Shown here: in pieces, positions 1,893-22,358 of the stretch
Layout: the number at the start of each line of letters is the position of its first letter
How positions within the stretch are numbered: the first letter of the stretch is position 1
Virus record (IMG/VR): IMGVR_UViG_2541047718_000017
Source of the DNA: a virus
Lineage: Duplodnaviria; Heunggongvirae; Uroviricota; Caudoviricetes
DNA length: 22,358 bases
Strand: one strand, 5' to 3'
Notes under the pieces: model-generated
What the model was told of the DNA's origin: nothing
Databases searched by the model: none
The model's input: only the letters and a program-made list of their open reading frames with translations
Program-made: the position numbers and the translations under genes

Positions 1893-4800
1893 GCGTCGTA
1901 TCCCCCCTGATCGCTGTAGTTACTCCTGGCTTTTGCCTTCAGCCTGCGTTCACGTTCATCAAGCTGGCGTGCCACCTCCCGCGCAATATCCTGCGCACTT
2001 TGTCCTGGCTGCGTCTGAATGATGATCTGCGTCGGTGCCTCAATCCGTTGAACGAGCGGCACAGTGGCTGCGCGACTCACAATTGCTTCTCCACCTTTCG
2101 CGGGAAGTGCCAAAGGGTGCAACGGTGGAAGCTCTGCTGGCGCGGCAGCAACGCCCATCATTCCGGCAACAACGGCAGCCAGTGCAGCTGTATTTCTCCG
2201 GCTGGTCACATTTGCCGGGCCGTTAACAATTTCCGGCCCGTTTTCACCGACGATGCCAAACTGCCCTCGCGGGATATACCCGCCGCTGTCATACATCCCC
2301 GCAAAGCCATATCCCCATGATGGAAAACCACCCGATGGCATCATCACTTTACCGTCTGCATTCACCGTCGCAGGTTGCTGACGCGTCACGCTTTCCGGCA
2401 GTTTTGCCTTTGCGGCCTCTTTACTGACAATGCCGAGCTTCTCCAGCAACCAGGAAACGCCGGATTTCAGGGAGTCCAGCGGATGCATGACCATATTCAG
2501 CCCTTCCGCCAGTGCCTCCCCGAATCGCCGCCCCATTGCCGCTGCACTCTGCAGTTCGGCAGAGGTCGACTTAACGGGCGTCAGCAGATCAGTAAACCAG
2601 CCCCACAGCGCCTGTACTTTGTCGCCAATCCACTGAAACACAGGCTTAAGTGGTTCGAATGCAGCACTGATGGGACCTGCCGCCGCTTTGAATCCTTCCA
2701 CCACGCCACCGAGAAATGCGGTGATGGGTTGCCAGTATTTCCAGACAACCAGCGCCACGCCCGCCAGTGCAGTAACCACAAGACCTATCGGACTGAGCAG
2801 AGCACCTAACAGACCAGATATGGCATACAGGGCAACGCGCAGCATCGCCAGCGGACCAGATGCAAGCACACGAAGCACCGCGCCTGCGGCAGCCAGTCCA
2901 CCGCGCAGTACCGCCAGAGGATTCATAAACATCACAGCAACAGCACGTAAACCGGATAATCCAGACCGCAAAAGTGCAACCGGCGCACCTGCTACAGTTT
3001 TAAGGACATTTCCCGTCAGTGATGCCGTGCGGCGCAAAGACGACAACGGCGCAGTAAGTAAACCTGCGGCGTTGCCCGATGAAGCAAGCCCGCGTCGCAG
3101 CAGTGCCAGTGGTGCGCCAGCCAGCCAGGACAACGCGCTGCTGGTTCGAGTTACTGCTGCCGTAACGGAAGATAACGTTTTGATACCCAGCACAGAGAAT
3201 CCCAGACGGATCACTGCCAGCGGCCCCAGCACTGCAGCCAGCGCCACCGCTAAGGTGCCGAGGCCGACGGTAACCGCAGCCACAACAGCCGATGCTTTCA
3301 TCAGTGTGCCTGTCAGTTCCGGGTTAGCTTCCACCCAGCGACGCAACGCCCCCGTGACGCTTTTCACCGTGTACAGAATATCCATCAGCGGCTGGCGCAG
3401 CGTTTCGCCCAGGCTGCTGAAGGTGTTCTGCGCTCCGGTTTTGACCAGCAACCACTGCGCAGAAAGTGAATCCTTGTTAATGTCGGATTCTTTCTGCATG
3501 GAGCCGAGCGCATCATTGCCCGCTGTCAGTTTTAACTGACGCTGCAGTTCCGGCAGGTTGTTTGCCAGTTTCGCCGCGTCATCGCCAAACTCTTTACCAA
3601 ACAACATAGTCATGGCAGACAGGCGCTTGTCCTGCGGCAGCGCGTTTACCTTCTCCAGCACGCGCTGGATGGTTCCCATCGCATCCTTCGTCATCTGCTT
3701 TTCAATCACTTCAGGATTGAGTTTCAGCAGATTCATCCCTTCAAAGAAACTTTTGCTTTGCATGGTGGCAATGGACAATTCACACACCATCGCGTTTGCT
3801 GCACTGGCTGCAACCTCTGGCGCAGCGCCCAGTGTCAGGAAGGTGGAACCCAGCGCCGCCGCTTTACGATAATCCAGACGGTCAGCCACACCGCCCAGAC
3901 GTTGCATCACATCAATGATGTCTGCCCCTTTCGACATGGCGTTATCATCCAGATAGTTCAGCGCATCACCGAGCTGTTCAATATTGCGGGTGGGGATTTT
4001 GTAGAGCTGGGCGATTTTCCCCAGACTTTCTGACAGTTCATCCGCTGGCAGCTCAAAGGCTGTTGCCGCCTTTGCTGCCGTACTGGCGAAGGCCAGCAGG
4101 TCACGTTTCTGATCTTCCCAACTGTCGTCAGGGTTTGCGACGTTCATGCGCGCGCCACCTTCAACCAGTGCAGCGAAATCCACAGCACCGTTTTCCATCG
4201 GCAACTGTTCGCTGGCAGCCTTGATGGCATCCTGCATTTCATAAAAACGTGCAGTGCGGTTGCCATTATCGTCACGCAGACCATTGACCTGCTTTGCCAC
4301 ACCTTTCATGGCATCTTCCATGCTGGTATAGCTTTTTACTGCCGCCATCACTGGTGCGCCCATTGCCAGCCCTGCAGCCGTGGTGGTGGCTCCGGCACCT
4401 GCAATACGATCACGCACCTCCAGCGAACGGGCATAACTGGCACGCGCTGCATTCATCCTGCGCTGAGCTTCCCCCAGTCGCTTCAGCCGCGCCTCCTGTT
4501 TCGAAAGTTCCTGGTTATAACGTGATGTTTCACGGGCTAAACGGGCAGTTGCTCCCGCATCGTCTTTCGCAGAAATTCCCGCCCGGTACAGTTCAGCACG
4601 CACAAGCGCCGTCTGCTGCTGCAGCTTTTTCTGGCGTTCTTCCAGGCGCTGAACAGCCAGCCGTTGACGGCCCAGAGCAACAACCTGACGTTGCGAAGGC
4701 GGCCCCATCGCTCCCAGTTCCTGACTGAGCAAATTTGCACGCTGGCGGGCATAGTTCAGCCTGTCGCCTAATTTCTGATTTTCTGCCTGCAGCTTTCGGA

Positions 4801-4966: not shown

Positions 4967-5395
4967 CGTTGGCCCCGCTTCTCTGAATCGCTTTATACCG
5001 CCATTCCAGCACTTCGGTCAGCGGCATAACGTCAGTAACGGATGGCGGCCAGTGAAAAATGGTGGCGATATCTGCCACCAGATCGTCAACCGTCAGGCTG
5101 TCGGTAAACCGGCAAGCACCGACTTCTTCAACAAAAAAGTGACAACCTCAACCGACATGGCAGTGAGATCTGCCGGGTCCATCTCTGCAATTTCCTGTGC
5201 AGTCAGTGCCGGACTGGAGATGCGGGGGAGCACGGTCATCATCGCGTTTACATCCATATCCATAATGGCCTGCAGGCGTGTACCGCGCAGCGCACCGGAC
5301 TGCGGTTTACGCAGCACAATTTCGGTGATTTCTGTTTTACCGCGCTTGATGGGGGTATCCAGTTGAATGGTCTTTTCAGTCTGCTTATCGCTCAT
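4959..5395 (-). CDS. E': tail assembly chaperone E+E' (programmed -1 frameshift product, about 145 aa)
   Basis: T_TTT_TTG heptamer on the minus strand at 5138..5132 in the E frame (ACT TTT TTG); the -1 frame stays open for 57 codons to a TGA at 4961..4959, overlapping the T start (4966). Manually translated. Confidence 0.72.
5093..5395 (-). CDS. E: tail assembly chaperone E (zero-frame product)
   Basis: 100-aa ORF between FII and T; the slippery heptamer lies near its 3' end. Confidence 0.88.
   Translation of the reverse strand: MSDKQTEKTIQLDTPIKRGKTEITEIVLRKPQSGALRGTRLQAIMDMDVNAMMTVLPRISSPALTAQEIAEMDPADLTAMSVEVVTFLLKKSVLAGLPTA
5132..5138 (-). other. -1 ribosomal frameshift slippery heptamer TTTTTTG (E to E')
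   Basis: Plus strand reads caaaaaa; X_XXY_YYZ register matches the E reading frame. Confidence 0.7.
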
Positions 5396-5420
5396 TTTGC
5401 TGTCCTGTCAATTGGGTTCT

Positions 5421-5438
5421 GGCGCGGTATCCCGCGCC
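5421..5438 (-). other. GC-rich stem-loop between FII and E (7-bp stem GGCGCGG/CCGCGCC, 4-nt loop)
   Basis: Perfect inverted repeat in the 54-bp FII-E intergenic region; no U-tract follows on the mRNA strand. Confidence 0.35.
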
Positions 5439-5449
5439 GTTCAGATATA

Positions 5450-5965
5450 TCAGAGGCCGAGGGCGTTGCGGTGCGCTTCCATCAGGTCCACACCGTCCAC
5501 AATTTCCACCATGTTGATAAGGTCCACTTCATAGAGCACCTCACCATTGATGGTCAGCTTCGCGTAGCTGTTGGTACTGGTCACTTTGGTGGTGTTGCTT
5601 TCGCCCGTCTTCCACTCGCCGGAATCCACTTCTTTGTGACGTCCACGCACGACAAGCTCCACGGCCTGCACTTCCCCGGTATCGTCACGCTGAATAGAGC
5701 CGGTAAAGCGCAGCTGGATGCCATCCACCGTGGCTTTACCCATCTGTTTAAACAGCAGCAATTCAGTACCACCAATGGAAAATTCTGTATCCAGCGCACT
5801 GTCATCAAGCCCCAGATCCACATCCACCGCACCCGGCATTCCGCCGCCGCGATACTTCTCATATTTGCGGGTAAATTTCGGCAGCGTCAGCGACTCAACG
5901 ATCCCCTGCCAGTTGTTCCCGTCGTTAAACAGGTTCAGGTGTTTTAATTTGCGTGGTAAAGCCAT
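5450..5965 (-). CDS. FII: tail tube protein
   Basis: 171-aa ORF; position and translation consistent with P2 gpFII. Confidence 0.9.
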   Translation of the reverse strand: MALPRKLKHLNLFNDGNNWQGIVESLTLPKFTRKYEKYRGGGMPGAVDVDLGLDDSALDTEFSIGGTELLLFKQMGKATVDGIQLRFTGSIQRDDTGEVQAVELVVRGRHKEVDSGEWKTGESNTTKVTSTNSYAKLTINGEVLYEVDLINMVEIVDGVDLMEAHRNALGL

Positions 5966-5974
5966 GTTGTCCCC

Positions 5975-6195
5975 TTACGCGCTGACCTGGCTGGCGAAAT
6001 TAACCAGGTACTGATCGGTGATGCGCTGACGCAGCATCAGGTTTTCAAGTGGCGGCACTGGCGTGTAGTCGTAGTCGATGGTGAGTTTTCCGGCTTTCAG
6101 CGTGTCTTTGTCGTTCACCGACTCATCCAGCCAGCAATCACCACCAATGAGATAGCCCTGACTGACCAGGCTGCGCATTTTGGCGCGGATACCTT
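5975..6195 (-). pseudogene. FI: tail sheath protein FI, detached C-terminal fragment (about 71 codons)
   Basis: ...[71 protein letters not shown] matches the P2 FI C-terminus; no FI-like sequence upstream of the junction at about 6194; the track ORF extends to 6337 only because no stop intervenes. Confidence 0.85.
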
Positions 6196-6207
6196 GGTTT
6201 GGGAGAA
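6182..6207 (+). other. hybrid invertase crossover site (junction A): FI-derived half GGCGCGGATACC, core TT, tail-fibre half GGTTTGGGAGAA
   Basis: 12-2-12 architecture; right half is the exact inverted repeat of 8045-8056; left half is sheath coding sequence. Confidence 0.7.
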
Positions 6208-6696
6208 GGCTCTGCATTACCGGTTGGGGTGCCTGTTCCGTGGCCTTCAGCCACTCCGCCAACAGGCTGGCTGAAATGCAACGGTGCCGCTTTTTCTGCT
6301 GAAGAATACCCGGAACTGGCAAAGGCTTATCCGACAAATAAATTGCCTGATTTACGTGGTGAGTTTATTCGTGGCTGGGATGACGGGCGTGGTATTGATG
6401 CTGTACGTGCCTTGCTAAGTCTTCAGAATGGAGGAGTGGAATCACACACCCACCAAGGGCAGCTCTTCAGAGTTAGTGATTATCGTACAAAAGAAATACC
6501 AGCATCAGAAGTTATGGGAAGAGGATATATTGCAAGCCTGACGCCGGGTGCTGATAGCCCACTTGATTTTGATGATTATTCTGTATCTTCTAATCCAAAT
6601 GGATATTTTGTCGGGAATCAGAGAACAACAGCATATGGGATAAATGAAACCCGTCCACGGAATATTGCATTTAACTATATCGTGAGGGCTGCCTGA
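6196..6696 (+). CDS. tail fibre variable C-terminal exon (Hv), currently not joined to the H constant region
   Basis: Begins GGT TTG GGA GAA (GLGE) immediately after the crossover core; translation ...[42 protein letters not shown]...NYIVRAA is a typical enterobacterial side-tail-fibre C-terminal receptor-binding domain; upstream in-frame stop at about 6163. Confidence 0.8.
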
Positions 6697-7298
6697 TGAA
6701 TAAAGCCGTATTAAATAACGAACTCATTGCCATAAAAGCGGGAGACATTACCATTTATAATTATGATGGTGAAACGCGGGAATATATTTCCACATCAACT
6801 GAATATCTTGCGGTTGGCGTCGGTATCCCGGCATGTTCTTGTTTAGATGCACCAGTTACACATAAAGCTGGTTATGCAATCTGCCGTTCTGCAGATTTTA
6901 ACTCATGGGAATATGTGCCAGACCATCGCGGTGAAATCATCTATAGCACCGAAACAGGAGAATCGAAAGAAATCACAGCTCCGGGTGATTACCCTGAAAA
7001 TACAACCACTATCGCCCCGTTAACGCCATATGATAAATGGGATGGTGAGAAATGGGTGACGGATACTGAGGCACAGCATAGTGCCGCAGTAGACGCGGCA
7101 GAAGCACAGCGCCAGTCACTGATTGATGCAGCAATGGCTTCCATTAGTCTGATTCAGCTGAAATTACAGGCCGGACGGAAGTTGACGCAGGCAGAAACAA
7201 CCCGACTTAACGCCGTGCTGGATTACATTGACGCGGTGGCGGCAACAGATACCAGCACCGCGCCGGATGTCATCTGGCCTGAACTGCCGGAGGCGTAG
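6696..7298 (+). CDS. tail fibre assembly chaperone (Tfa / Mu U-like) for Hv
   Basis: 200-aa ORF coupled to the Hv stop; C-terminal ...DYIDAVAATDTSTAPDVIWPELPEA motif typical of Tfa proteins. Confidence 0.85.
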   Translation: MNKAVLNNELIAIKAGDITIYNYDGETREYISTSTEYLAVGVGIPACSCLDAPVTHKAGYAICRSADFNSWEYVPDHRGEIIYSTETGESKEITAPGDYPENTTTIAPLTPYDKWDGEKWVTDTEAQHSAAVDAAEAQRQSLIDAAMASISLIQLKLQAGRKLTQAETTRLNAVLDYIDAVAATDTSTAPDVIWPELPEA

Positions 7299-7707
7299 GC
7301 CATTCAATATCTGGCGCACCGGTAGTATCGACTAGCTCCAGTGCGTCCAGATAATCCAGCCACGAATTATATTGCGCCAGTTCCTCGCTTTTCAGACGAC
7401 CAATAGCGGCTTTACCGGGCCATTGTTTACTGTTCATGTATTCGTTGGCCTGATTAAGCAATAATTGCCTTTCTGATTCTGCCTGTTGAATAAGTTCTTC
7501 ATGTGATGGTGGAGGTATTAGTGCCCATGTGGGTAATCCATTTTTTCCTGCAACACGAATTTTGTCATCTGGAGGCGTATTGATTGCAAATTCATTATAA
7601 ACATCATCACTGACAGCCAGAGCATCATCTGGCCATGAATTTGCATTAATGTAATCATCCTTAAGTGCAGGATTCACAAAAATGTTTAAAGATGGACTAT
7701 AAAACAT
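7270..7707 (-). CDS. alternative tail fibre assembly chaperone (Tfa', Mu U'-like)
   Basis: 145-aa ORF convergent with and overlapping tfa by 29 bp; C-terminal ...DYLDALELVDTTGAPDIEWPTPPA motif. Confidence 0.85.
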   Translation of the reverse strand: MFYSPSLNIFVNPALKDDYINANSWPDDALAVSDDVYNEFAINTPPDDKIRVAGKNGLPTWALIPPPSHEELIQQAESERQLLLNQANEYMNSKQWPGKAAIGRLKSEELAQYNSWLDYLDALELVDTTGAPDIEWPTPPAVQAR

Positions 7708-7708
7708 A

Positions 7709-8056
7709 TTACACCCCTATAGCGATATAACGACCTAATACAGCGTTTACAGCAGTCGCTATGCTTGAAAAACCGCGGAACTGATTTGATGTAATTGCAG
7801 AAGCCGACAGGATTCCTGCGCCTGAAGGTGTATGCCCCACATGACTAACTATCATTCCATAACATGCTGACGGAAAGGCAAAAGGAAAATCGTTAAGATA
7901 TCCGGCATCTTCACCACCAGACCCACCAAATCTCGCCTGCCCCCACTGAATAATCAGTGTTCTCCGGGAACCTGAAATAATTAACGGGATCGTTACATAC
8001 CCATTCAGGCCAATGACACCCGATGCAGTGCCAGCCAGAGATAATTCTCCCAAACC
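7709..8056 (-). CDS. alternative tail fibre variable C-terminal exon (Hv')
   Basis: Coding starts at the crossover core with the same GGT TTG GGA GAA (GLGE) as Hv; followed by tfa'. Codons upstream of 8056 in the track ORF (MMPVSCYLCIFLNV) lie in the outer half-site and are probably not coding. Confidence 0.78.
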   Translation of the reverse strand, partial: GLGELSLAGTASGVIGLNGYVTIPLIISGSRRTLIIQWGQARFGGSGGEDAGYLNDFPFAFPSACYGMIVSHVGHTPSGAGILSASAITSNQFRGFSSIATAVNAVLGRYIAIGV

Positions 8057-8070
8057 AACGTTTAAGAAAA
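8045..8070 (+). other. invertase crossover site (gix/hix/pix-like): TTCTCCCAAACC AA CGTTTAAGAAAA
   Basis: 12-2-12 near-dyad resembling the remembered hix/gix consensus (TTCTnnAAAACC-NN-GGTTT...); inner half is a perfect inverted repeat of 6196-6207; lies 56 bp upstream of the invertase start. Confidence 0.75.
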
Positions 8071-8125
8071 TGCAGAGGTAACAGCTAACTGGCATCATCT
8101 CCGGTTTTTATTCAGGGGGATGATC

Positions 8126-8692
8126 ATGCTTATTGGCTATGTACGCGTGTCAACAAATGACCAGAACACCGATTTGCAACGTAATGCACTGAACTGCGCG
8201 GGATGTGAGCAGATTTTTGAGGACAAAATCAGTGGCACTAAGTCCGACAGACCGGGGCTGAAAAAACTACTCAGGACACTATCGGCAGGAGACACGCTGG
8301 TTGTCTGGAAGCTGGACAGGTTGGGGCGCAGTATGCGGCATCTTGTTACGCTGATAGAAGAGTTGCGCCAGCGTGGTGTGAATTTCAGAAGCCTGACTGA
8401 CAGTATTGATACCAGTACCCCAATGGGCCGTTTCTTTTTTCATGTCATGGGTGCCCTGGCTGAAATGGAACGCGAACTGATAGTTGAACGTACCAGGGCA
8501 GGGCTGGCTGCAGCTCGTGCCAAAGGCAGAGTAGGTGGACGCCGTCCTAAGTTGACCACCGAACAGTGGGCACAGATTGGGCGTTTACTCGAGGCCGGAG
8601 AATCAAGACAGCGTATTGCACTGATTTTTGATGTAGGCGTTTCTACCATTTATAGAAAATTTCCGGCAAATAAGATCAATGAATCCCCCTGA
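8126..8692 (+). CDS. serine-recombinase DNA invertase (Gin/Pin/Cin/Hin family)
   Basis: MLIGYVRVSTNDQNTDLQRNAL...VVWKLDRLGRSMRHL...MGRFFFHVMGALAEMERELIVERT... matches Gin/Pin-type invertases from memory, including the catalytic Ser in YVRVST and a C-terminal HTH. Start taken at the internal ATG (track start 8120). Confidence 0.92.
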   Translation: MLIGYVRVSTNDQNTDLQRNALNCAGCEQIFEDKISGTKSDRPGLKKLLRTLSAGDTLVVWKLDRLGRSMRHLVTLIEELRQRGVNFRSLTDSIDTSTPMGRFFFHVMGALAEMERELIVERTRAGLAAARAKGRVGGRRPKLTTEQWAQIGRLLEAGESRQRIALIFDVGVSTIYRKFPANKINESP

Positions 8693-8740
8693 ATCAGCAT
8701 TATGTTGATTATCCCTGCAAGCAGACAAATACCGTTATTT

Positions 8741-8758
8741 TGTGTGAATAACGACACA
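8741..8758 (+). promoter_or_regulatory. Ogr-box (TGT-N12-ACA) of late promoter P_F upstream of FI
   Basis: TGTgtgaataacgacACA with 5-bp dyad arms, in the 143-bp gap between invertase and FI start, about 85 bp upstream of the FI ATG (8835). Confidence 0.6.
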
Positions 8759-8834
8759 ACTGCGCTTAGCTGTTTGTCAGGCACAATCACTTCAACATAG
8801 GGCGAAGCCTAATCCAATCAGGAGGTTCGCCACT

Positions 8835-9797
8835 ATGGCTCAGGATTACCACCACGGGGTGCGCGTTGTTGAAGTCAACGAAGGTACCCGATCTATTACC
8901 ACGGTGAGCACCGCCATCGTGGGTATGGTCTGCACGGGCGATGATGCCGATGCAAAAATGTTTCCTCTTAATAAACCCGTGCTGATCACTGATGTGCTGA
9001 CTGCCAGCGGTAAAGCGGGTGAGTCAGGTACTCTGGCCCGTTCGCTGGATGCCATCGCTGACCAGGCAAAACCCGTGACCATTGTTGTGCGTGTGCCGCA
9101 GGGTGAAACGGAAGACGAAACCACGACCAATATCATCGGCGCAGTGACTGCTGAAGGTAAAAAAACAGGTATGAAAGCCCTGTTATCTGCCCAGTCACAG
9201 CTCGGCGTTAAACCGCGCATTCTCGGCGTGCCAGGCCACGACACCAAGGCGGTAGCTACTGAGTTGCTGAGCGTGGCGCAAAGCCTGCGTGGATTTGCTT
9301 ACCTGTCAGCGTATGGCTGCAAGACAGTGCAGGAGGCGATCACTTACCGCGAAAACTTCAGCCAGCGCGAAGGGATGCTGATCTGGCCTGACTTTACTGG
9401 CTGGGACACGGTGCTGAATGCCGAAGCAACGGCATATGCCACCGCCCGTGCGCTTGGTCTGCGCGCCAAAATTGACGAGCAGACCGGATGGCACAAAAGC
9501 CTGTCCAACGTGGGCGTGAACGGTGTCACCGGAATTTCTGCAGATGTGTTCTGGGATCTGCAGGACCCGGCAACCGATGCAGGTCTGCTGAACCAGAACG
9601 ACGTCACCACGCTTGTGCGTAAAGACGGTTTCCGCTTCTGGGGTTCCCGCTGCCTGAGTGATGACCCGCTCTTTGCCTTCGAAAACTACACCCGCACGGC
9701 GCAGGTGCTGATGGACACGATGGCAGAAGCACACATGTGGGCGGTGGATAAACCGCTTAACCCGTCGCTGGCCCGCGACATTATCGAAGGTATGTGA
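8835..9797 (+). pseudogene. FI: tail sheath protein FI, N-terminal 319 codons, truncated at the inversion junction
   Basis: MAQDYHHGVRVVEVNEGTRSITTVSTAIVGMVCTGDDADAKMFPLNKPVLITDV... is near-collinear with the P2 FI N-terminus; reading frame ends ...RDIIEG-M-stop two codons after the crossover core. Confidence 0.88.
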
Positions 9798-9800
9798 GAA
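9775..9800 (+). other. hybrid invertase crossover site (junction B): FI-derived half GCGACATTATCG, core AA, H-derived half GGTATGTGAGAA
   Basis: H-side half (TTCTCACATACC on the minus strand) matches the Hv/Hv' half-site TTCTCCCAAACC at 10 of 12 positions; the other half is sheath coding sequence. Confidence 0.7.
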
Positions 9801-10836
9801 GACCAGCTACATCCTTTCCACTCAAATTGGTAAGCGTATTGTCCAGCGGTTGTTTACCTGCCAGCGCATTAAGCATTGTCGTGGCAAAGTTCGGATCATT
9901 CCCCAGTGCCGCCGCCAGTTCGTTCAGTGTATCCAGTGCAGCAGGTGCAGAACCCACCATTCCTGCAATCGCCGATTTCACAAAAGCCGTAGTGGCAATC
10001 TGTGTATTGTTGACCGACTGCGCCGCCGTGGGGGCTGTTGGCGTTCCGGTGAGTGCCGGACTCGACAACGGTGCTTTTAGTGCCAGCGCATTGTTAATGG
10101 TGGTACTGAAATTCGGATCATTGTTAATGGCTGCGGCTATTTCTTTCAGCGTGTCCAGCGTGGCTGGCGCACCATTAATAAGGGCCGTCAGTGCCGCCTG
10201 TACAAACGCAGTGGTCGCAACCTGCGTGGTATTATTCCCCGCCGCTGGCGTTGGCGCTTTGGGGGTTCCGGTAAATGTCGGGCTGGCTTTTGGCGCGTAC
10301 TGTGAATGCGGGTCCGGTGCGGCAAGATGTTTTGCCATCTGATCATCCGCGTACACCTTCAGCTCCAGTGCCTTGTCATCCACATACTTGCGGGTTGCCA
10401 GCACTACAGCAGGGTCGATTTTCAGGGTGATATTGTCCGTGCTGCTGGTAATCAGCACCATGCGCACGGTCTGAGTGCGCCCGCTACCTTCAGCCAGTTG
10501 CGGCTTATAGCTTTCCGGGCAGTTGCCCACGGCAATCAATGCACCTGACTCATCAAACAGGCCCACTTCACGTATCCACCAACCGCCCTCGTTTTCAGGG
10601 ATCACCTGTTCGGCAATAATCTGGCTGCTGTTCTGCGGGTCGATATAAAGCATATTCAGCGCAGCCCGGCGTTTCTCATTTACCAGTGCCGTCTGCTTTG
10701 CGTCCGGCGTTGGCAATACTCCACCGCCATCGCCCACCGCCATATGGGTAATTTTTAGCGGCACACCGAGCGCGGCGGCGCTGGCAAGTTTCGCCGCGCC
10801 AATATCCGTCAGCAGGGTATAAAATTTTGTGCTCAT
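9781..10836 (-). CDS. H: tail fibre protein H, N-terminal constant region (Mu Sc-equivalent), ending 2 codons after the crossover core
   Basis: MSTKFYTLLTDIGAAKLA...MAVGDGGG...ESYKPQLAEGSGRTQT... and the repeated ...TQIATTAFV... motifs match the P2 gpH N-terminal part; the ORF ends ...LTYL-R-stop at the junction with antisense FI. Confidence 0.88.
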   Translation of the reverse strand: MSTKFYTLLTDIGAAKLASAAALGVPLKITHMAVGDGGGVLPTPDAKQTALVNEKRRAALNMLYIDPQNSSQIIAEQVIPENEGGWWIREVGLFDESGALIAVGNCPESYKPQLAEGSGRTQTVRMVLITSSTDNITLKIDPAVVLATRKYVDDKALELKVYADDQMAKHLAAPDPHSQYAPKASPTFTGTPKAPTPAAGNNTTQVATTAFVQAALTALINGAPATLDTLKEIAAAINNDPNFSTTINNALALKAPLSSPALTGTPTAPTAAQSVNNTQIATTAFVKSAIAGMVGSAPAALDTLNELAAALGNDPNFATTMLNALAGKQPLDNTLTNLSGKDVAGLLTYLR

Positions 10837-11438
10837 GGATTCACTCTCATTGTGTCAATAACATGGACCGCCCCGCCTTCATGCGCGGTGCCACCGGAAA
10901 TAATCGTTTCGTTGATATACGGATAGATCGTGATTTCTTCGCCAAGATAGCTGGCGGCTCCCACCCAATGCGGGCCGCTGGTCTGCAGATTGATGGACAT
11001 GCCGATCATGTGGCGGCTACATGGTTTGGCATCGCTTATCAGTCGCTCAAGTTCCAGATAGGTATCTTCAGTGATGCCCTGGTCCTGCACGCCGATATCC
11101 AGGCGAAACGTGCCCGGTGTTTCTCCGGTCTGCCACCACTCAATAATGCGGATCAGGAATCCGAACGGCTCCACCACCCGCCGCACGGCACTGGTGGTCC
11201 CTTTATGCTGATGAATATAAAAAGCATCCTTCACCACCTGGCGCTTGACGCTTTCTGTCCAGCCCTCGTCCCAGCGATCCACAGAGAACGCCCAGGCGAG
11301 ATAAGGCAGGAAACTGACCGGACAGGTTGCCGGATTCCACAAATCACGAAGCGGCACCTGCAGATCAGAAATCCCGCTGCAGGTTTGCGCCAGTCGGCAC
11401 TCCAGTGGTGTTGAACCCGGTGGCAGCAGACTATTCAT
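10833..11438 (-). CDS. I: baseplate assembly protein I
   Basis: 201-aa ORF between J and H with overlapping stops/starts; N-terminus MNSLLPPGSTPLE resembles P2 gpI. Confidence 0.86.
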   Translation of the reverse strand: MNSLLPPGSTPLECRLAQTCSGISDLQVPLRDLWNPATCPVSFLPYLAWAFSVDRWDEGWTESVKRQVVKDAFYIHQHKGTTSAVRRVVEPFGFLIRIIEWWQTGETPGTFRLDIGVQDQGITEDTYLELERLISDAKPCSRHMIGMSINLQTSGPHWVGAASYLGEEITIYPYINETIISGGTAHEGGAVHVIDTMRVNP

Positions 11439-13306: not shown

Positions 13307-13324
13307 TGTATCAGTGCTGATACA
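13307..13324 (+). promoter_or_regulatory. Ogr-box (TGT-N12-ACA) of late promoter P_V
   Basis: TTGTATCAGtgCTGATACAA, a 20-bp dyad with 9-bp arms, in the 68-bp gap between S stop and V start. Confidence 0.6.
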
Positions 13325-13775: not shown

Positions 13776-14220
13776 GTTTCACCGTCCACATTTCTTCAGG
13801 TTCATCAGGTTCCGCTATAGCTTCAACGCTCGACACACTGCCGTCAGTGCTGACCAGCACACGCTCCGTCAGTTGCAGGTTGAGGCTGATATCACAGACA
13901 TCGTTGCGCAGAATATCCACCTCAAAGGTGAATAGCTTTTCCCGTAACGCCGGGTTATTGATGGCATCGGGCTGGTTATCACGCAGCCACAGCAAAACCG
14001 GGGCCATCAGCAGATTCTGGTCGCCGCTGAAATCCTCAATCACCACGTTCAGGGTGTAGCGGTACTCCCATGACATGGAGCTGGCCCCCGTGGCAACCAG
14101 CGAACCGTTATCCACAAACAGATGCAGTTTGTCCGGGTTATTGCGGACATAAGGCACCGCTTTATTGAGGGCGTGGCGCAGGGATTGTGGTTTGTTCACT
14201 GTTTCGCTCCTGACACGCAA
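13768..14220 (-). CDS. R: tail completion protein R
   Basis: 150-aa ORF; ...FVDNGS...RYTLNVVIEDFSGD...WLRDNQPD... matches P2 gpR; exact start uncertain. Confidence 0.85.
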   Translation of the reverse strand: MRVRSETVNKPQSLRHALNKAVPYVRNNPDKLHLFVDNGSLVATGASSMSWEYRYTLNVVIEDFSGDQNLLMAPVLLWLRDNQPDAINNPALREKLFTFEVDILRNDVCDISLNLQLTERVLVSTDGSVSSVEAIAEPDEPEEMWTVKRG

Positions 14221-15098: not shown

Positions 15099-15611
15099 TC
15101 AGTTTGCTCCCTGTAAACACCAGGCCATCTCCCGCGCACGGCGGTTATCCAGCCCCTGATTAAACACACCTTTTACATAAACCCAGCGCGGCAACTGTCG
15201 GCACGCATCCGCCCAGCGCCGCTGATTGAGCAATTTCACCAGCGTGGAGCTGCAGGCATTGCCTGTCCCCACGTTGAAGGCAAACGACACCACCGAGTCA
15301 TACACCTTTTGTGGCGGCTGTTGCTTCACACATCTTTCCAGCGCCCGCTCCACACGCAGCACGTTGGAGATAAGCCCTTCTGCTGCCTGTCGTTCCGTAA
15401 TGGTTTTGCCGGGAATGACGCCCGACGTATTACCAATGCCGTCAGTCCATACACCCGCGCTGCACTGATAGGGCTGCAGACGACAGCCTTCGTAATCGGC
15501 AATCAGTTTCAGTCCCTCCACGGAGGTGTGAAGCTGCTGAAAACCCGGCAGCGTGGCAGCAATAGCCAGCACGGTCCCGACAAGGCAGCGTTTAACGATT
15601 GATGGATTCAT
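15099..15611 (-). CDS. K: endolysin (lysozyme), probable SAR-type
   Basis: 170-aa ORF at the P2 K position; Gly/Ala-rich weakly hydrophobic N-terminus (CLVGTVLAIAATLPG), then a lysozyme-like E...D...T motif region (EGLKLIADYEG...WTDGIGNT). Confidence 0.85.
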   Translation of the reverse strand: MNPSIVKRCLVGTVLAIAATLPGFQQLHTSVEGLKLIADYEGCRLQPYQCSAGVWTDGIGNTSGVIPGKTITERQAAEGLISNVLRVERALERCVKQQPPQKVYDSVVSFAFNVGTGNACSSTLVKLLNQRRWADACRQLPRWVYVKGVFNQGLDNRRAREMAWCLQGAN

Positions 15612-15807
15612 AGTCCTCCCGCGAGATCTGCCCGTCGCGCAGAAGCTGGTAGGCTTTGTGTTTGTAGTACCAGTTGATAGCCAGCATCAGCACACCAATC
15701 ATCAGGCCGCCCAGCGTTGAGGCATCCTTGATGGACAAATCGCCCAGCCAGACCAGCACAACGGCGATGCAGTACGTGATAAAGGCGCTGATTCGCTCAA
15801 GCGTCAT
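15592..15807 (-). CDS. Y: holin (small, two predicted TM segments; pinholin-like)
   Basis: 71-aa ORF between X and K with two hydrophobic stretches and a charged C-terminus; position corresponds to P2 Y. Confidence 0.65.
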   Translation of the reverse strand: MTLERISAFITYCIAVVLVWLGDLSIKDASTLGGLMIGVLMLAINWYYKHKAYQLLRDGQISREDYESINR

Positions 15808-15810
15808 AAT

Positions 15811-16014
15811 TCAGTCCCATAGCTGGACGGTCTGCACGGTGGTGGTTGTCGGAATGTCCGGCAGCTCCACCTGCAGCCCGTGAGGTAAAAAGGGGCCATA
15901 TTCGGCAAGCCCCGGATTTGCCTTCAGTACCTGCTCCGTGACACCCTGCGTGCGCCCGTAATGACGCCAGCAAAGCGCGTCCACCGTGTCATACTGATGC
16001 GCACGCACTTTCAT
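15811..16014 (-). CDS. X: tail protein X
   Basis: 67-aa ORF; MKVRAHQYDTVDALCWRHYGRTQGVTEQVLKANPGLAEYGPFLPHGLQVELPD matches P2 gpX. Confidence 0.9.
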   Translation of the reverse strand: MKVRAHQYDTVDALCWRHYGRTQGVTEQVLKANPGLAEYGPFLPHGLQVELPDIPTTTTVQTVQLWD

Positions 16015-16478
16015 CAGATAAGCTCCACTGTGCAGTGCGGCGCGTCCTGTACCCGGCTGATGGCCCAGCGGGCGTCACGCCATAAATCACCGCTGGCTTC
16101 CGCCAGTTCCTCGCCCCGCTTCACACCGGATGCCGTGGCGTCATAGTCCTGGTAACGTTCGTTGAGCATGGCGCGTGCCCAGCAGTAAACCGCGTTGAAA
16201 TAGTGCTGAATGCGCTCACTTTTGCCGTCCAGCTGTTCCGCCGGAACCTCTGCCAGCGAGGCATACCCCAGCATCTGCTGGCATCTGCGAAACTCATACA
16301 GCTCTGCGTTGACCTCCGAAATTGCCGACAGCGCAACCTGCTTTAAACGCGGCTGCGTCACCGTACCGTCAGTGCGCATCACACTGCGGAACTCCGACAG
16401 ATCCACATCAGGCCAGAACGGCGTATTCCTGATGATTTCCGCCTGTTCCGGTGCCTGTTCTGGCGCAACAAACTTCAT
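16014..16478 (-). CDS. L: head completion/stabilisation protein L
   Basis: Start taken at internal MKFVAPEQ with an AGGAGA Shine-Dalgarno upstream; ATGA overlap with the X start. Confidence 0.86.
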   Translation of the reverse strand: MKFVAPEQAPEQAEIIRNTPFWPDVDLSEFRSVMRTDGTVTQPRLKQVALSAISEVNAELYEFRRCQQMLGYASLAEVPAEQLDGKSERIQHYFNAVYCWARAMLNERYQDYDATASGVKRGEELAEASGDLWRDARWAISRVQDAPHCTVELI

Positions 16479-16573
16479 GCTGCTTTCTCCTGAGATAGAG
16501 GGCGGTGGACGGGGTTTTGATGTGGCAGTGCCTTTCGCCACCCCGTGCCGCCCGTGCGCGGGGGCACGTTCTG

Positions 16574-17224
16574 TCAGCGGCTGTCATTGCGCAGTCTGCG
16601 CTCCAGCTGCTGTTTGTCTTTTTTCACGCCACAGCGGGGATCGAGCTGTAACGCATGGTTGAGATGATTAAGGGCGGAAGCCGGATTACTTTCACTCAGG
16701 ACAGCGCCAATCGCTTTATGCAGACGCGCCCGTGACTGGTCCGGCATGTCCAGACCGTCTGTCAGCTCCAGCGTCTGCAGCAACAGATCGACATCAAAGC
16801 CGGTAGTGGCAAGCATTGCGCTCTGTGCCGCGTCTGCCATTTCCTCTGCCAGCACGGTTTGCACATTGCGGTTACCCAGCGGCATCACCCAGCCATGACG
16901 CAGGGCATGACGCCCGATCTCCAGCGCCCCGGCATAATCTCCGGCATCAATGCGCCACAGCATCACGTACATCAGCACGTCATCCTGTTGAGCGCCTCCG
17001 GCAGCCAGAACACCCTCTGCCCAGGCGGCGTATTTCGGCAGCAGCTCCACCTTGATTTCCGCTTTTTTGACCGTGGACTGAACGCCCTTGAGACGGCGGC
17101 GATCTTCCGCCAGTTGCAGCAGCATCAGGTCATAGCCCGACGCGTGGCGAACGCTGCCGCCCTCACGGGCGGCCTGTTCAGCCTGAACGCGCAGGCGATG
17201 CTGCCGTGCGGGACTCAGGCTCAT
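16574..17224 (-). CDS. M: terminase small (endonuclease) subunit
   Basis: 216-aa ORF between N and L; resembles P2 gpM. Confidence 0.86.
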   Translation of the reverse strand: MSLSPARQHRLRVQAEQAAREGGSVRHASGYDLMLLQLAEDRRRLKGVQSTVKKAEIKVELLPKYAAWAEGVLAAGGAQQDDVLMYVMLWRIDAGDYAGALEIGRHALRHGWVMPLGNRNVQTVLAEEMADAAQSAMLATTGFDVDLLLQTLELTDGLDMPDQSRARLHKAIGAVLSESNPASALNHLNHALQLDPRCGVKKDKQQLERRLRNDSR

Positions 17225-19214: not shown

Positions 19215-19232
19215 TGTACCGACAACCACACA
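19215..19232 (+). promoter_or_regulatory. Ogr-box (TGT-N12-ACA) in the divergent O / P-Q promoter region
   Basis: tTTGTaccgacaaccacACAAa with 5-bp dyad arms, in the 142-bp gap between the O and P start codons; which promoter it serves is unresolved. Confidence 0.5.
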
Positions 19233-19278
19233 AACCGCAGGCGGGGAAAGCCTTCATTCAAGGTTGTAGGTTTGTGCC

Positions 19279-21045
19279 ATGAACACCACACTGACACCCG
19301 CAGATCTCGATCCCCGTCGGCAGGCCATGCTGCTGTACTTTCAGGGATACCGCGTAGCCCGCATTGCTGAAATGCTGGGCGAGAAAGTTGCAACCGTTCA
19401 CAGCTGGAAAAAACGCGACAAGTGGGGTGACTATGGGCCGCTGGATCAGATGCAGCTCACCACCGCCGCACGCTACTGCCAGCTCATCATGAAGGAGCAC
19501 AAAGAAGGGAAAGATTTCAAAGAGATTGACCTGCTGGCGCGCCAGTCGGAGCGCCACGCGCGGATCGGCAAGTTTAACAATGGCGGCAACGAAGCCGACT
19601 TAAACCCTAACGTCGCCAACCGCAATAAAGGCCCACGCCGTCAGCCGGAAAAGAATGTTTTCACCGATGAGCAGATTGAGAAGCTGGAAGAAATCTTCCA
19701 TTCCTCCATGTTCAACTACCAGCGCCACTGGTGGGAAGCCGGAAAAACCAACCGCATCCGCAACCTGCTGAAGTCACGCCAGATCGGCGCGACCTTTTAC
19801 TTTGCCCGTGAAGCCCTGATTGACGCCCTGCTTACCGGACGTAACCAGATTTTCCTTTCCGCCAGCAAGGCACAGGCCCACGTCTTTAAGCAGTACATCA
19901 TCGACTTCGCCAAAGAAGTGGGGGTGGAGTTGAAAGGCGATCCGATGGTGCTTCCTAACGGGGCCACGCTTTACTTCCTCGGCACCAATGCCCGCACGGC
20001 CCAGAGTTATCACGGCAACCTGTATCTGGATGAATATTTCTGGATACCGAAATTCCAGGAGCTGCGCAAAGTGGCTTCCGGTATGGCTATTCACAAAAAA
20101 TGGCGACAAACCTATTTTTCCACGCCATCCAGCCTGACACACAGTGCTTATCCGTTCTGGTCCGGTGCGCTGTTCAACCGTGGGCGCAACAAGGCCGACA
20201 AGGTGGACATCGACCTGTCCCACAGCAATCTGGCCCCCGGCCTGCTGTGCGCAGACGGGCAATACCGCCAGATAGTCACCGTGGAAGATGCGGTGCGCGG
20301 CGGCTGTAACCTGTTCGACCTTGACCAGTTGCGCATGGAGTACAGCCCGGACGAATACCAGAACCTGCTGATGTGCGAGTTTGTGGACGATCTCGCGTCC
20401 GTATTTCCGCTCAGCGAGCTGCAGGCGTGCATGGTGGACAGCTGGGAAGTCTGGACCGACTTTCATGCACTGGCTCTGCGCCCGTTTGGCTGGCGCGAAG
20501 TGTGGATCGGTTATGACCCGGCAAAAGGTACGCAAAACGGCGACAGCGCCGGATGCGTGGTGGTGGCACCGCCAGCCGTGCCTGGTGGTAAGTTCCGCAT
20601 TCTTGAGCGTCACCAGTGGCGCGGGATGGACTTCCGCGCCCAGGCTGACGCCATCAAAAAACTGACCGAACAGTACAACGTGACCTATATCGGTATCGAC
20701 TCAACCGGCGTTGGTCACGGGGTTTATGAGAACGTGAAAGCGTTCTTTCCTGCCGTCCGGGAGTTTGTCTACAACCCCAATGTTAAAAACGCCCTGGTAC
20801 TCAAGGCCTACGACATTATCAGCCACCGCCGTCTGGAGTTTGACGCCGGGCACACCGACATTGCGCAGTCATTTATGGCAATCCGTCGCGCTACCACTGC
20901 CAGTGGCAACCGCCCGACCTATGAAGCCAGCCGCAGCGAAGAAGCCAGCCATGCCGATCTGGCCTGGGCAACAATGCACGCACTGTTTAACGAACCGCTG
21001 CAGGGCGAGTCCGCCAATACCAGCAATATTGTGGAGATTTTTTGA
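19279..21045 (+). CDS. P: terminase large (ATPase) subunit
   Basis: 588-aa ORF divergent from O and followed by Q, as in P2. Confidence 0.92.
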   Translation: MNTTLTPADLDPRRQAMLLYFQGYRVARIAEMLGEKVATVHSWKKRDKWGDYGPLDQMQLTTAARYCQLIMKEHKEGKDFKEIDLLARQSERHARIGKFNNGGNEADLNPNVANRNKGPRRQPEKNVFTDEQIEKLEEIFHSSMFNYQRHWWEAGKTNRIRNLLKSRQIGATFYFAREALIDALLTGRNQIFLSASKAQAHVFKQYIIDFAKEVGVELKGDPMVLPNGATLYFLGTNARTAQSYHGNLYLDEYFWIPKFQELRKVASGMAIHKKWRQTYFSTPSSLTHSAYPFWSGALFNRGRNKADKVDIDLSHSNLAPGLLCADGQYRQIVTVEDAVRGGCNLFDLDQLRMEYSPDEYQNLLMCEFVDDLASVFPLSELQACMVDSWEVWTDFHALALRPFGWREVWIGYDPAKGTQNGDSAGCVVVAPPAVPGGKFRILERHQWRGMDFRAQADAIKKLTEQYNVTYIGIDSTGVGHGVYENVKAFFPAVREFVYNPNVKNALVLKAYDIISHRRLEFDAGHTDIAQSFMAIRRATTASGNRPTYEASRSEEASHADLAWATMHALFNEPLQGESANTSNIVEIF

Positions 21046-22154: not shown

Positions 22155-22358
22155 TGAACCGCCCCGGGAATCCTGGAGACTAAACTTCCTGAGAAAGAGG
22201 TAAACAGGATGACTAAAAATACTCGTTTTTCCCCCGAAGTCCGTCAACGGGCAGTCCGTATGGTTCTGGAAAGTCAGAGCGAATATGACTCACAATGGGC
22301 GACAATTTGTTCCATTGCTCCAAAGATTGGCTGTACGCCGGAGACTCTGCGTGTCTGG
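22155..22358 (+). mobile_element. IS3-family insertion sequence, left end (IS629/IS1203/IS3411-like), truncated by the window edge
   Basis: Terminal TGAACCGCCCCGGGAATCCTGGAGACTAAACTTCC matches the IS629-group left inverted repeat as I remember it, followed by the orfA start. Confidence 0.8.
22209..22358 (+). CDS. IS3-family transposase OrfA (N-terminal HTH part, partial)
   Basis: Translation [50 protein letters not shown] is characteristic of IS629-group OrfA. Confidence 0.8.

Follow-up and report, generated by a model that had tools for sequence, protein, structure and literature searches.

Site-specific DNA invertases of the Din family (Gin, Cin, Pin and Hin) recombine inverted 26-bp sites of the 12-2-12 form, and in phages the segment between such sites carries alternative tail-fibre C-termini together with their cognate chaperones and is found in both orientations. 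The Cin invertase of phage P1 reportedly also inverts DNA at quasi-sites, or secondary sites, in events that Iida and Hiestand-Nauer are said to have selected on plasmids in the laboratory in 1986 and 1987 (references 50 and 51 of PMC4134206). For PinQ, an invertase of a cryptic E. coli prophage that inverts the P segment of e14, the creation of a chimeric protein (StfE2) and action in trans between prophages have been documented (PMC12529663). Here we analyze a stretch of 22,358 nucleotides (IMG/VR record IMGVR_UViG_2541047718_000017; the window below means this whole stretch), which covers the late genes of a P2-like prophage from ogr to the portal gene (minus strand). Inside it, a 3.6-kb inversion has split the tail sheath gene FI and separated the constant and variable parts of the tail-fibre gene H. 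We suggest with high confidence that this FI x H inversion dates from one off-target (quasi-site) recombination event, carried out by the Gin-type serine invertase that the prophage itself encodes. The gene of this enzyme lies within the inverted segment:

8120-8692, plus strand: Gin-type serine DNA invertase, intact; 188 aa from 8126 in the NCBI Prokaryotic Genome Annotation Pipeline (PGAP)

The predicted enzyme has the Pfam domains Resolvase (E 2e-53) and HTH_7 (E 1.5e-15) and the catalytic motif YVRVSTNDQ, and it shares 138 of 184 residues (75%) with Gin of phage Mu (3UJ3; E 3e-93). In a search for the Fis-dependent recombinational enhancer that genes of this family carry in their 5' part, a degenerate Fis consensus matched the gene twice (8196 and 8303, 107 bp apart), and the pattern shows no enrichment in the window (44 matches against 52 expected). 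In its regular part the locus is built as a Din-family switch: inverted 26-bp 12-2-12 sites flank an invertible segment with two fibre C-termini and their chaperones, and both orientations are seen. The normal role of the enzyme would be to invert this 1.86-kb segment between its two 26-bp sites, which would swap the C-terminus of H.

Split sheath and fibre genes and their junctions

The fragments of the two genes and the segment that was inverted are the following:

5975-6190, minus strand: C-terminal fragment of FI, 71 codons and a stop, ending ...QVSA, not displaced, with the tube gene FII still downstream
8835-9797, plus strand: N-terminal fragment of FI, 319 sheath codons followed by Met and a stop (...RDIIEGM), inverted
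9781-10836, minus strand: constant N-terminal part of H (Pfam Phage_tail_fib), truncated to 351 aa, ending ...GLLTYLR and a stop; a PGAP pseudogene
6199-6696, plus strand: Hv, the variable fibre C-terminus (Pfam Collar), now detached from the constant part of H
6196-9786: the inverted segment between the central dinucleotides, 3,591 bp

An initial annotation, made from the letters of the window, had described FI as two fragments on opposite strands, and both the translations and Pfam confirm this: the Phage_sheath_1C profile is cut exactly between the fragments, the N part ending at profile position 47 of 104 and the C part covering positions 48-104. The same annotation had the constant region of H ending at 9781 immediately after LTYL; the coordinate is right, and one extra Arg precedes the stop. 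PGAP records the C-terminal FI fragment as a pseudogene 'missing N-terminus' and places three pseudogenes labelled 'partial in the middle of a contig' at the positions of the split genes; one inversion accounts for all three 'partial' pseudogenes, which is of practical value for annotation. The detached Hv is annotated by PGAP as a free-standing 'tail fiber protein' (WP_003568837.1) whose start is a TTG inside the crossover site, an annotation artefact of the invertible region. We also considered that the junctions might encode a new chimeric protein and rejected this, as both junction open reading frames (ORFs) stop within 1-2 codons.

Re-inversion of 6196-9786 in silico gives single ORFs for both genes, 390 aa for FI and 516 aa for H-Hv, with no base gained or lost. 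The initial annotation had foreseen single ORFs and the sheath length of about 390 aa, whereas its guess of about 511 aa for the fibre was too short. The restored FI junction reads GGCGCGGATACCTTCGATAATGTCGC, and both restored proteins are present verbatim in public genomes. The state before the event is preserved in E. coli CE10 (NC_017646.1), where the same chromosomal locus holds a near-identical prophage that is uninverted and in which both FI and H are annotated as intact, as the initial annotation had expected for FI in related prophages. Across both junctions the alignment of the restored window with CE10 is unbroken, with no indel at either; over 18.7 kb it shows 3 mismatches and a single 81-bp indel (99.98% identity). 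The exchange was reciprocal and conservative at its 2-bp centre. BLAST matches of canonical genomes to the window as it stands break at 6189 and 9793. A 7-bp inverted match would be unremarkable when taken alone; the restoration of two genes together with collinearity to a sister genome appears far beyond chance. The inversion would be a clean natural case of a recombinase harming its own element via a quasi-site. The 81-bp indel is a tandem duplication of window positions 13878-13958 in CE10, where the gpR-like tail gene measures 513 bp (432 bp in the window).

Both ends of the inversion lie in hybrid sites, and beside the invertase gene there is a third site, a natural one:

6182-6207: junction A, hybrid 26-bp 12-2-12 site, plus-strand reading GGCGCGGATACC TT GGTTTGGGAGAA, centre TT at 6194-6195
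9775-9800: junction B, hybrid 26-bp site, minus-strand reading TTCTCACATACC TT CGATAATGTCGC, centre at 9787-9788 (AA on the plus strand)
8045-8070: natural site beside the invertase gene, TTCTCCCAAACC AA CGTTTAAGAAAA, centre at 8057-8058, +28.2 bits

These sites were scored with a half-site matrix built from the 4 natural half-sites of this element and 12 published for the prophages of EC958 (PMC4134206, Table 3); as the matrix contains the element's own half-sites, the scores of the natural sites are partly circular. In junction A the left half is sheath DNA (-1.0 bits) and the right half is the natural variable-fibre half-site (+16.1 bits), while junction B combines the fibre constant half-site (+14.5 bits) with a sheath DNA half (-6.5 bits). 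The half-site scores bear out the earlier description of both junctions as 12-2-12 sites with one good half and one poor half made of sheath DNA. Re-pairing of the halves restores the genuine H site at the boundary of the constant and variable fibre parts, TTCTCACATACC TT GGTTTGGGAGAA (+30.6 bits), and the FI pseudo-site, GGCGCGGATACC TT CGATAATGTCGC (-7.6 bits; halves -1.0 and -6.5). Of the 22,333 positions in the window, none scores higher than the H site and the one at 8045-8070, and the third best reaches +8.5 bits. The natural site at 8045-8070 stands in inverted orientation to junction A but forms a direct repeat with junction B, and inversion between this site and junction B cannot repair the fibre.

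The FI pseudo-site and the H site share the central TT and five adjacent inner bases (ATACC). This is the heptamer that the initial annotation had seen in inverted orientation at the two junctions, ATACCTT at 6189-6195 and AAGGTAT at 9787-9793, and each form occurs once on the plus strand of the window; its edges are the points at which the BLAST matches break. In the two partner sites the central TT lies on opposite strands, which is the orientation that inversion by this enzyme family requires according to the rule as cited in PMC4134206 (references 50 and 51 therein). The locus therefore presents what is expected of quasi-site recombination: a genuine site joined to a weak one that has the same central dinucleotide in inversion orientation, with reciprocal exchange at the 2-bp core.

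Rarity, inheritance and continued flipping of the inner segment

Of 5426 complete E. coli genomes, only 2 give full-length matches to queries of 600 bp that span the junctions, while the respective halves occur in their normal arrangement in ~1,300 and ~2,300 of them. E. coli AF57 (NZ_OZ546943.1, from a UK blood culture) has 0 mismatches to the window over the 19.1 kb compared, and AR_0013 (NZ_CP032204.1) has one differing base. At the level of contigs from NCBI, ENA, JGI and Logan, the exact 320-aa sheath stub is found on 190 and the exact 351-aa fibre stub on 189, the isolates HVH 53 and HVH 187 being among the sources. The sheath stub occurs in 294 index blocks, mostly short-read contigs of 10-50 kb that continue across junction B. 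We considered fibre stubs of 354 aa as further aberrant junctions and rejected them; they end ...LTYLGLGE, are marked 'partial' in their source records and are most likely ordinary truncations at the repeat.

In order to follow inheritance, the window was divided into four rearrangement-free blocks and compared with related loci, which are numbered L004, L005, L008 and so on. One single-nucleotide polymorphism (SNP) separates the inverted from the canonical copies. Position 5230 is G in all nine inverted assemblies (AF57, AR_0013, L004, L005, L007/L032, L009/L037, L021, L036 and L038) and T in all near-identical canonical copies (CE10, L006, L008, L011, L012 and the partly diverged L010), and nine more distantly related canonical prophages have T as well. 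Every near-identical carrier of 5230G in the contigs that were read is inverted, and no revertant, i.e. a canonical copy carrying 5230G, was found among the sampled near-identical copies. The protein allele that this SNP creates (gpE') also occurs in other P2-like prophages with ~95% DNA identity and different fibres, and it was dropped as a marker; only the nucleotide context of 5230 in near-identical copies is informative. A tube-protein allele (window 5929A) was dropped as a lineage marker too, being a common allele (54,526 blocks).

In this small sample the inversion looks like a single event that was clonally inherited, and the junctions could serve as a specific clonal marker of the lineage. 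The initial annotation had preferred a one-off inactivating event to a switch, and the two complete genomes, the ~190 contigs, the private SNP and the lack of a sampled revertant all side with it. The 3.6-kb inversion is not a programmed inverton: its two orientations were not found to coexist in the lineage, within a limited sample, and instead of dedicated, conserved inverted repeats at both ends there are only 7 shared bp, the site on the sheath side being ordinary FI coding DNA that stands unchanged in canonical prophages without the inversion.

Within the inverted lineage, the segment that the invertase normally turns over has gone on flipping. This segment contains Hv and the following genes:

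6696-7298, plus strand: assembly chaperone cognate to Hv (Pfam Caudo_TAP, E 3e-32)
7270-7707, minus strand: alternative tail-fibre assembly chaperone (Pfam Caudo_TAP, E 1e-32)
7709-8065, minus strand: Hv', the alternative variable fibre C-terminus (Pfam Gp53-like_C)

In canonical copies either C-terminus can be joined to H. The H-Hv fusion of 516 aa is found on 85 contigs and the H-Hv' fusion of 465 aa on 33, the latter also in the canonical relatives L008 and L010. Three inverted loci (L005, L007 and L009) have window positions 6194-8061 flipped and junction B as in the window; apart from private SNPs in L005 and L007 they are otherwise identical to the window. Hybrid junction A and the natural site are the partners in this flip. 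ORFs at junction A that tell the two inner states apart occur on 88 contigs for one state and on 55 for the other. A sublineage of the inverted clade (L005 and L038) carries a 96-bp in-frame duplication in the tape-measure gene (window 4095-4190; 1057 vs 1025 aa). Both inner states are found within this sublineage (L005 vs L038) and within the sublineage without the duplication, and therefore at least two inner flips took place after the aberrant event.

Invertase activity thus persists in the cell, presumably from the intact resident gene. The hybrid sites are not dead, since site A supports inner flipping, and this can be added to the initial annotation. A site with a single good half stays a working substrate in vivo over evolutionary time, which is relevant to the specificity limits of Gin-derived recombinases in genome editing. 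At the same spot, the near-identical prophage of UMN026 (L012, CU928164.2) has the equivalent of 6295-8673 replaced by an insertion sequence, with FI intact; it has lost most of the variable fibre cassettes and the invertase gene, an alternative route of decay.

Origin of the inversion and its consequences

A course of events that fits these data is as follows. In an ancestor of this E. coli lineage, the enzyme would have paired the genuine H site with the weak look-alike in FI, once. Exchange at the 2-bp core would have inverted 3,591 bp with the fibre cassettes, the invertase gene, the late promoter and 319 codons of FI, truncating both sheath and fibre and separating FII-E-T-U-D from their promoter. 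The lesion would have been tolerated with early and replication genes already lost through a deletion associated with an IS3-family element; it was probably neutral and passed on clonally. Hybrid site A, with its one good half, would still recombine with the natural site, so that the inner segment keeps flipping. Catalysis by the invertase is suggested by the fact that one breakpoint hits the exact centre of a natural site, with an intact invertase gene inside the segment. The initial annotation had proposed that a Gin/Pin-like invertase recombined the genuine site in H with a cryptic site in FI and carried its own gene and the late promoter (P_F) along, and this proposal fits all the tests made here.

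Three points weigh against this reading or part of it. The FI pseudo-site is weak, ranking 250 of 22,333 positions and 21 of 2,696 among those with a TT or AA centre, so that sequence preference alone does not predict the site. An invertase acting in trans from another prophage may have been the source of the event or of the later activity. Finally, the relative timing of the IS3 deletion and the inversion is a parsimony argument from CE10, which brings in the state of the prophage.

The gene order of the prophage, Q P / O N M L X Y K lys R S V W J I H ... FI FII E T U D ogr, is that of a P2-like (Peduoviridae) late module, as judged from the PGAP annotation of AF57, AR_0013 and CE10 and the Pfam families of the neighbouring genes. 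In AF57 and AR_0013 it lies between sad/glsB and yneK and splits a LysR-family gene. At the end of the window lies an element that the initial annotation missed, along with the early-region deletion that it marks:

22155-22358, plus strand: start of an IS3-family element, abutting the portal gene, continuing in L014 at 15528-16741 and marking the early-region deletion

In AF57 and AR_0013 this element is directly followed by a 3' fragment of the integrase gene, and nothing remains of the immunity, early and replication region or of the 5' part of the integrase gene. In CE10, too, this IS3 stands at equal distance from the portal gene, and replication genes are likewise absent; CE10 retains a truncated cII, an apl-like gene, CI and an intact integrase, and carries an inserted ISEc53 and a ClbS/DfsB gene. 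By parsimony, the prophage would have been replication-dead before the FI x H inversion or independently of it, because the uninverted CE10 shares the IS3 and lacks the replication genes. With these functions lost, the lesion in FI and H is plausibly neutral. The earlier claim that tail production should be off needs a correction, because the prophage was probably already a remnant with little left to switch off.

One alternative is a reversible three-site switch, in which the hybrid sites rarely recombine back and the production of tails, helper functions or tailocins is phase-variable. The invertase is intact, hybrid site A is proficient in recombination as the inner flips of the lineage show, and junctions A and B are inverted with matching TT centres, so that reversal is chemically possible. 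Yet reversal requires the pairing of two hybrid sites that each have a poor half, 5230G is found in nine inverted assemblies and in no near-identical canonical copy, and short-read contigs pass straight through junction B in hundreds of assemblies. Furthermore, the pseudo-site is ordinary conserved sheath coding DNA that is also present in many genomes never inverted, and with the early and replication genes gone and, in this lineage, the intact integrase too, no phage is left to regulate. We regard such a switch as quite unlikely.

A second off-target inversion, of 21,167 bp, bears on the role of the enzyme. It lies in a different P2/186-like prophage at the ybjL/rcdA locus (carriers JNEC-KY202, JNEC-KY174, FHI_NMBU_11 and CFIAFB20190167) and joins the same H site to an apl/cox-like early gene. 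Its junctions, in NZ_AP045178.1, are:

L027 20289-20314: first apl x H junction, centre ~3517605
L030 1761-1786: second apl x H junction, centre ~3538772

The native site of the early gene is TTCGCTATAACG TT CGATTGTGACAT (L029 ~3290-3315), and the junctions, TTCGCTATAACG TT GGTTTGGGAGAA and TTCTCACATACC TT CGATTGTGACAT, are perfectly reciprocal. The inversion truncates H and cuts the early operon off from the CI side, in a prophage that is otherwise annotated intact in the regions retrieved and that carries the retron Ec67. The 352-aa fibre stub of this event is found on 709 contigs and the hybrid apl ORFs, one for each inner state, on 593 and 537. Off-target inversion therefore recurs, as this independent case shows, and both quasi-sites, in FI and in apl, read TT-CGAT.

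The apl x H event gives indirect backing to catalysis of the FI x H inversion by the invertase, as opposed to an origin without the enzyme, through illegitimate recombination or template switching at the 7-bp inverted microhomology ATACCTT/AAGGTAT. The latter would agree with the seven bases shared by the breakpoints and with the poor quality of the FI site, and short inverted repeats can mediate rare rearrangements. On the other hand, those 7 bp coincide exactly with the centre and inner half of one of only two natural sites in the window, and in the independent 21-kb inversion the same natural site recombined at the same TT centre with another partner, in which CGAT likewise follows the centre. 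Such a coincidence is unexpected for random microhomology events, and this explanation is very improbable. That the junctions are artefacts of assembly or scaffolding in an invertible repeat region is next to impossible: invertible fibre regions do often break or confuse assemblies (PMC4134206), and contig ends account for many of the partial fibre proteins of 345-354 aa in the database, but identical junctions were obtained in the separate sequencing of two complete genomes, whose isolates come from different countries, and also in ~190 contigs drawn from four sources, 2013-era Illumina assemblies (HVH 53 and HVH 187) and Logan re-assemblies among them, the FI pseudo-site is not a repeat, and the chimeric junctions that the initial annotation had allowed for are not borne out.

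With off-target recombination by the resident invertase as the preferred explanation, the consequences for transcription can be considered. The late promoter of the sheath operon, which would have moved with the segment, is represented by a candidate:

8741-8758, plus strand: TGT-N12-ACA dyad 77 nt before the FI start, a candidate for the Ogr-dependent late promoter of the sheath operon

The window contains 6 such dyads against 6.4 expected, so there is no enrichment. Three of the other five (13307-13324 upstream of V, and 19215-19232 and 19273-19290 in the divergent O/P intergenic region) sit in the remaining two intergenic regions where P2 late promoters are expected, and the dyad positions match the layout of the Ogr-dependent late promoters of P2. 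From this layout the dyad at 8741-8758 is probably the FI late promoter. A generic scan of 5400-10900 for promoters and terminators gave counts at or near shuffle expectation and was not used. The relocated FI promoter would now drive the FI stub and antisense transcription into H-I-J, while the C-terminal part of FI and FII, E, T, U and D would be left without a promoter of their own, and neither a full sheath nor a full fibre could be made.

Together, the apl x H and FI x H inversions suggest that off-target activity of invertases contributes measurably to the decay or domestication of E. coli prophages. A broader proposal is that such inversions are a recurrent, undescribed route by which E. 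coli P2/186-like prophages are locked or killed, and that their recombination-proficient hybrid sites act as competence switches with rare reversal. We consider this proposal unlikely; if true, the locks could in principle reopen at low frequency.

Comparison with known recombination systems

The quasi-site events of P1 Cin, as reported, resemble the FI x H inversion in that a genuine 26-bp site recombines with a poorly matching one, an identical central dinucleotide governs selection and orientation, and the products are hybrid sites able to recombine again. Unlike those plasmid events, the present one is natural and chromosomal, splits two structural genes of the enzyme's own prophage and has apparently become fixed in a lineage.

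With the host-range switches of the Gin, Cin, Pin and Hin type (the Mu G segment, the P1 C segment and Phi1, Phi2 and Phi4 of EC958), the locus shares an invertase three-quarters identical to Gin and sites of 12-2-12 form. Its H boundary site closely resembles the Phi2 site of EC958, TCCTCAATTACC TT GGTTTAGGAGAA (PMC4134206, Table 3). There are two fibre C-termini, each with a chaperone, and both inner orientations exist in nature. In contrast to these switches, the 3.6-kb inversion is unprogrammed: one partner site is unconserved, the invertase gene lies inside the segment and genes are destroyed.

PinQ inversion of the e14 P segment (PMC12529663) is similar in that an invertase of a cryptic E. 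coli prophage rearranges the fibre DNA of a defective prophage, with effects beyond host range. PinQ uses the regular P-segment sites, acts reversibly and yields a functional new protein, whereas here only stubs ending ...EGM and ...LTYLR result. Intragenic invertons (PMC10028968) also have an inversion breakpoint inside a coding sequence; they have paired inverted repeats and both orientations coexist, whereas here the 'repeat' on the sheath side is 7 bp and the state is apparently fixed. A published description of this FI/H inversion was not found in a literature search of limited coverage. By these comparisons, the FI x H inversion is not a new system; it is a natural instance, in a defective prophage, of a known recombinase error.

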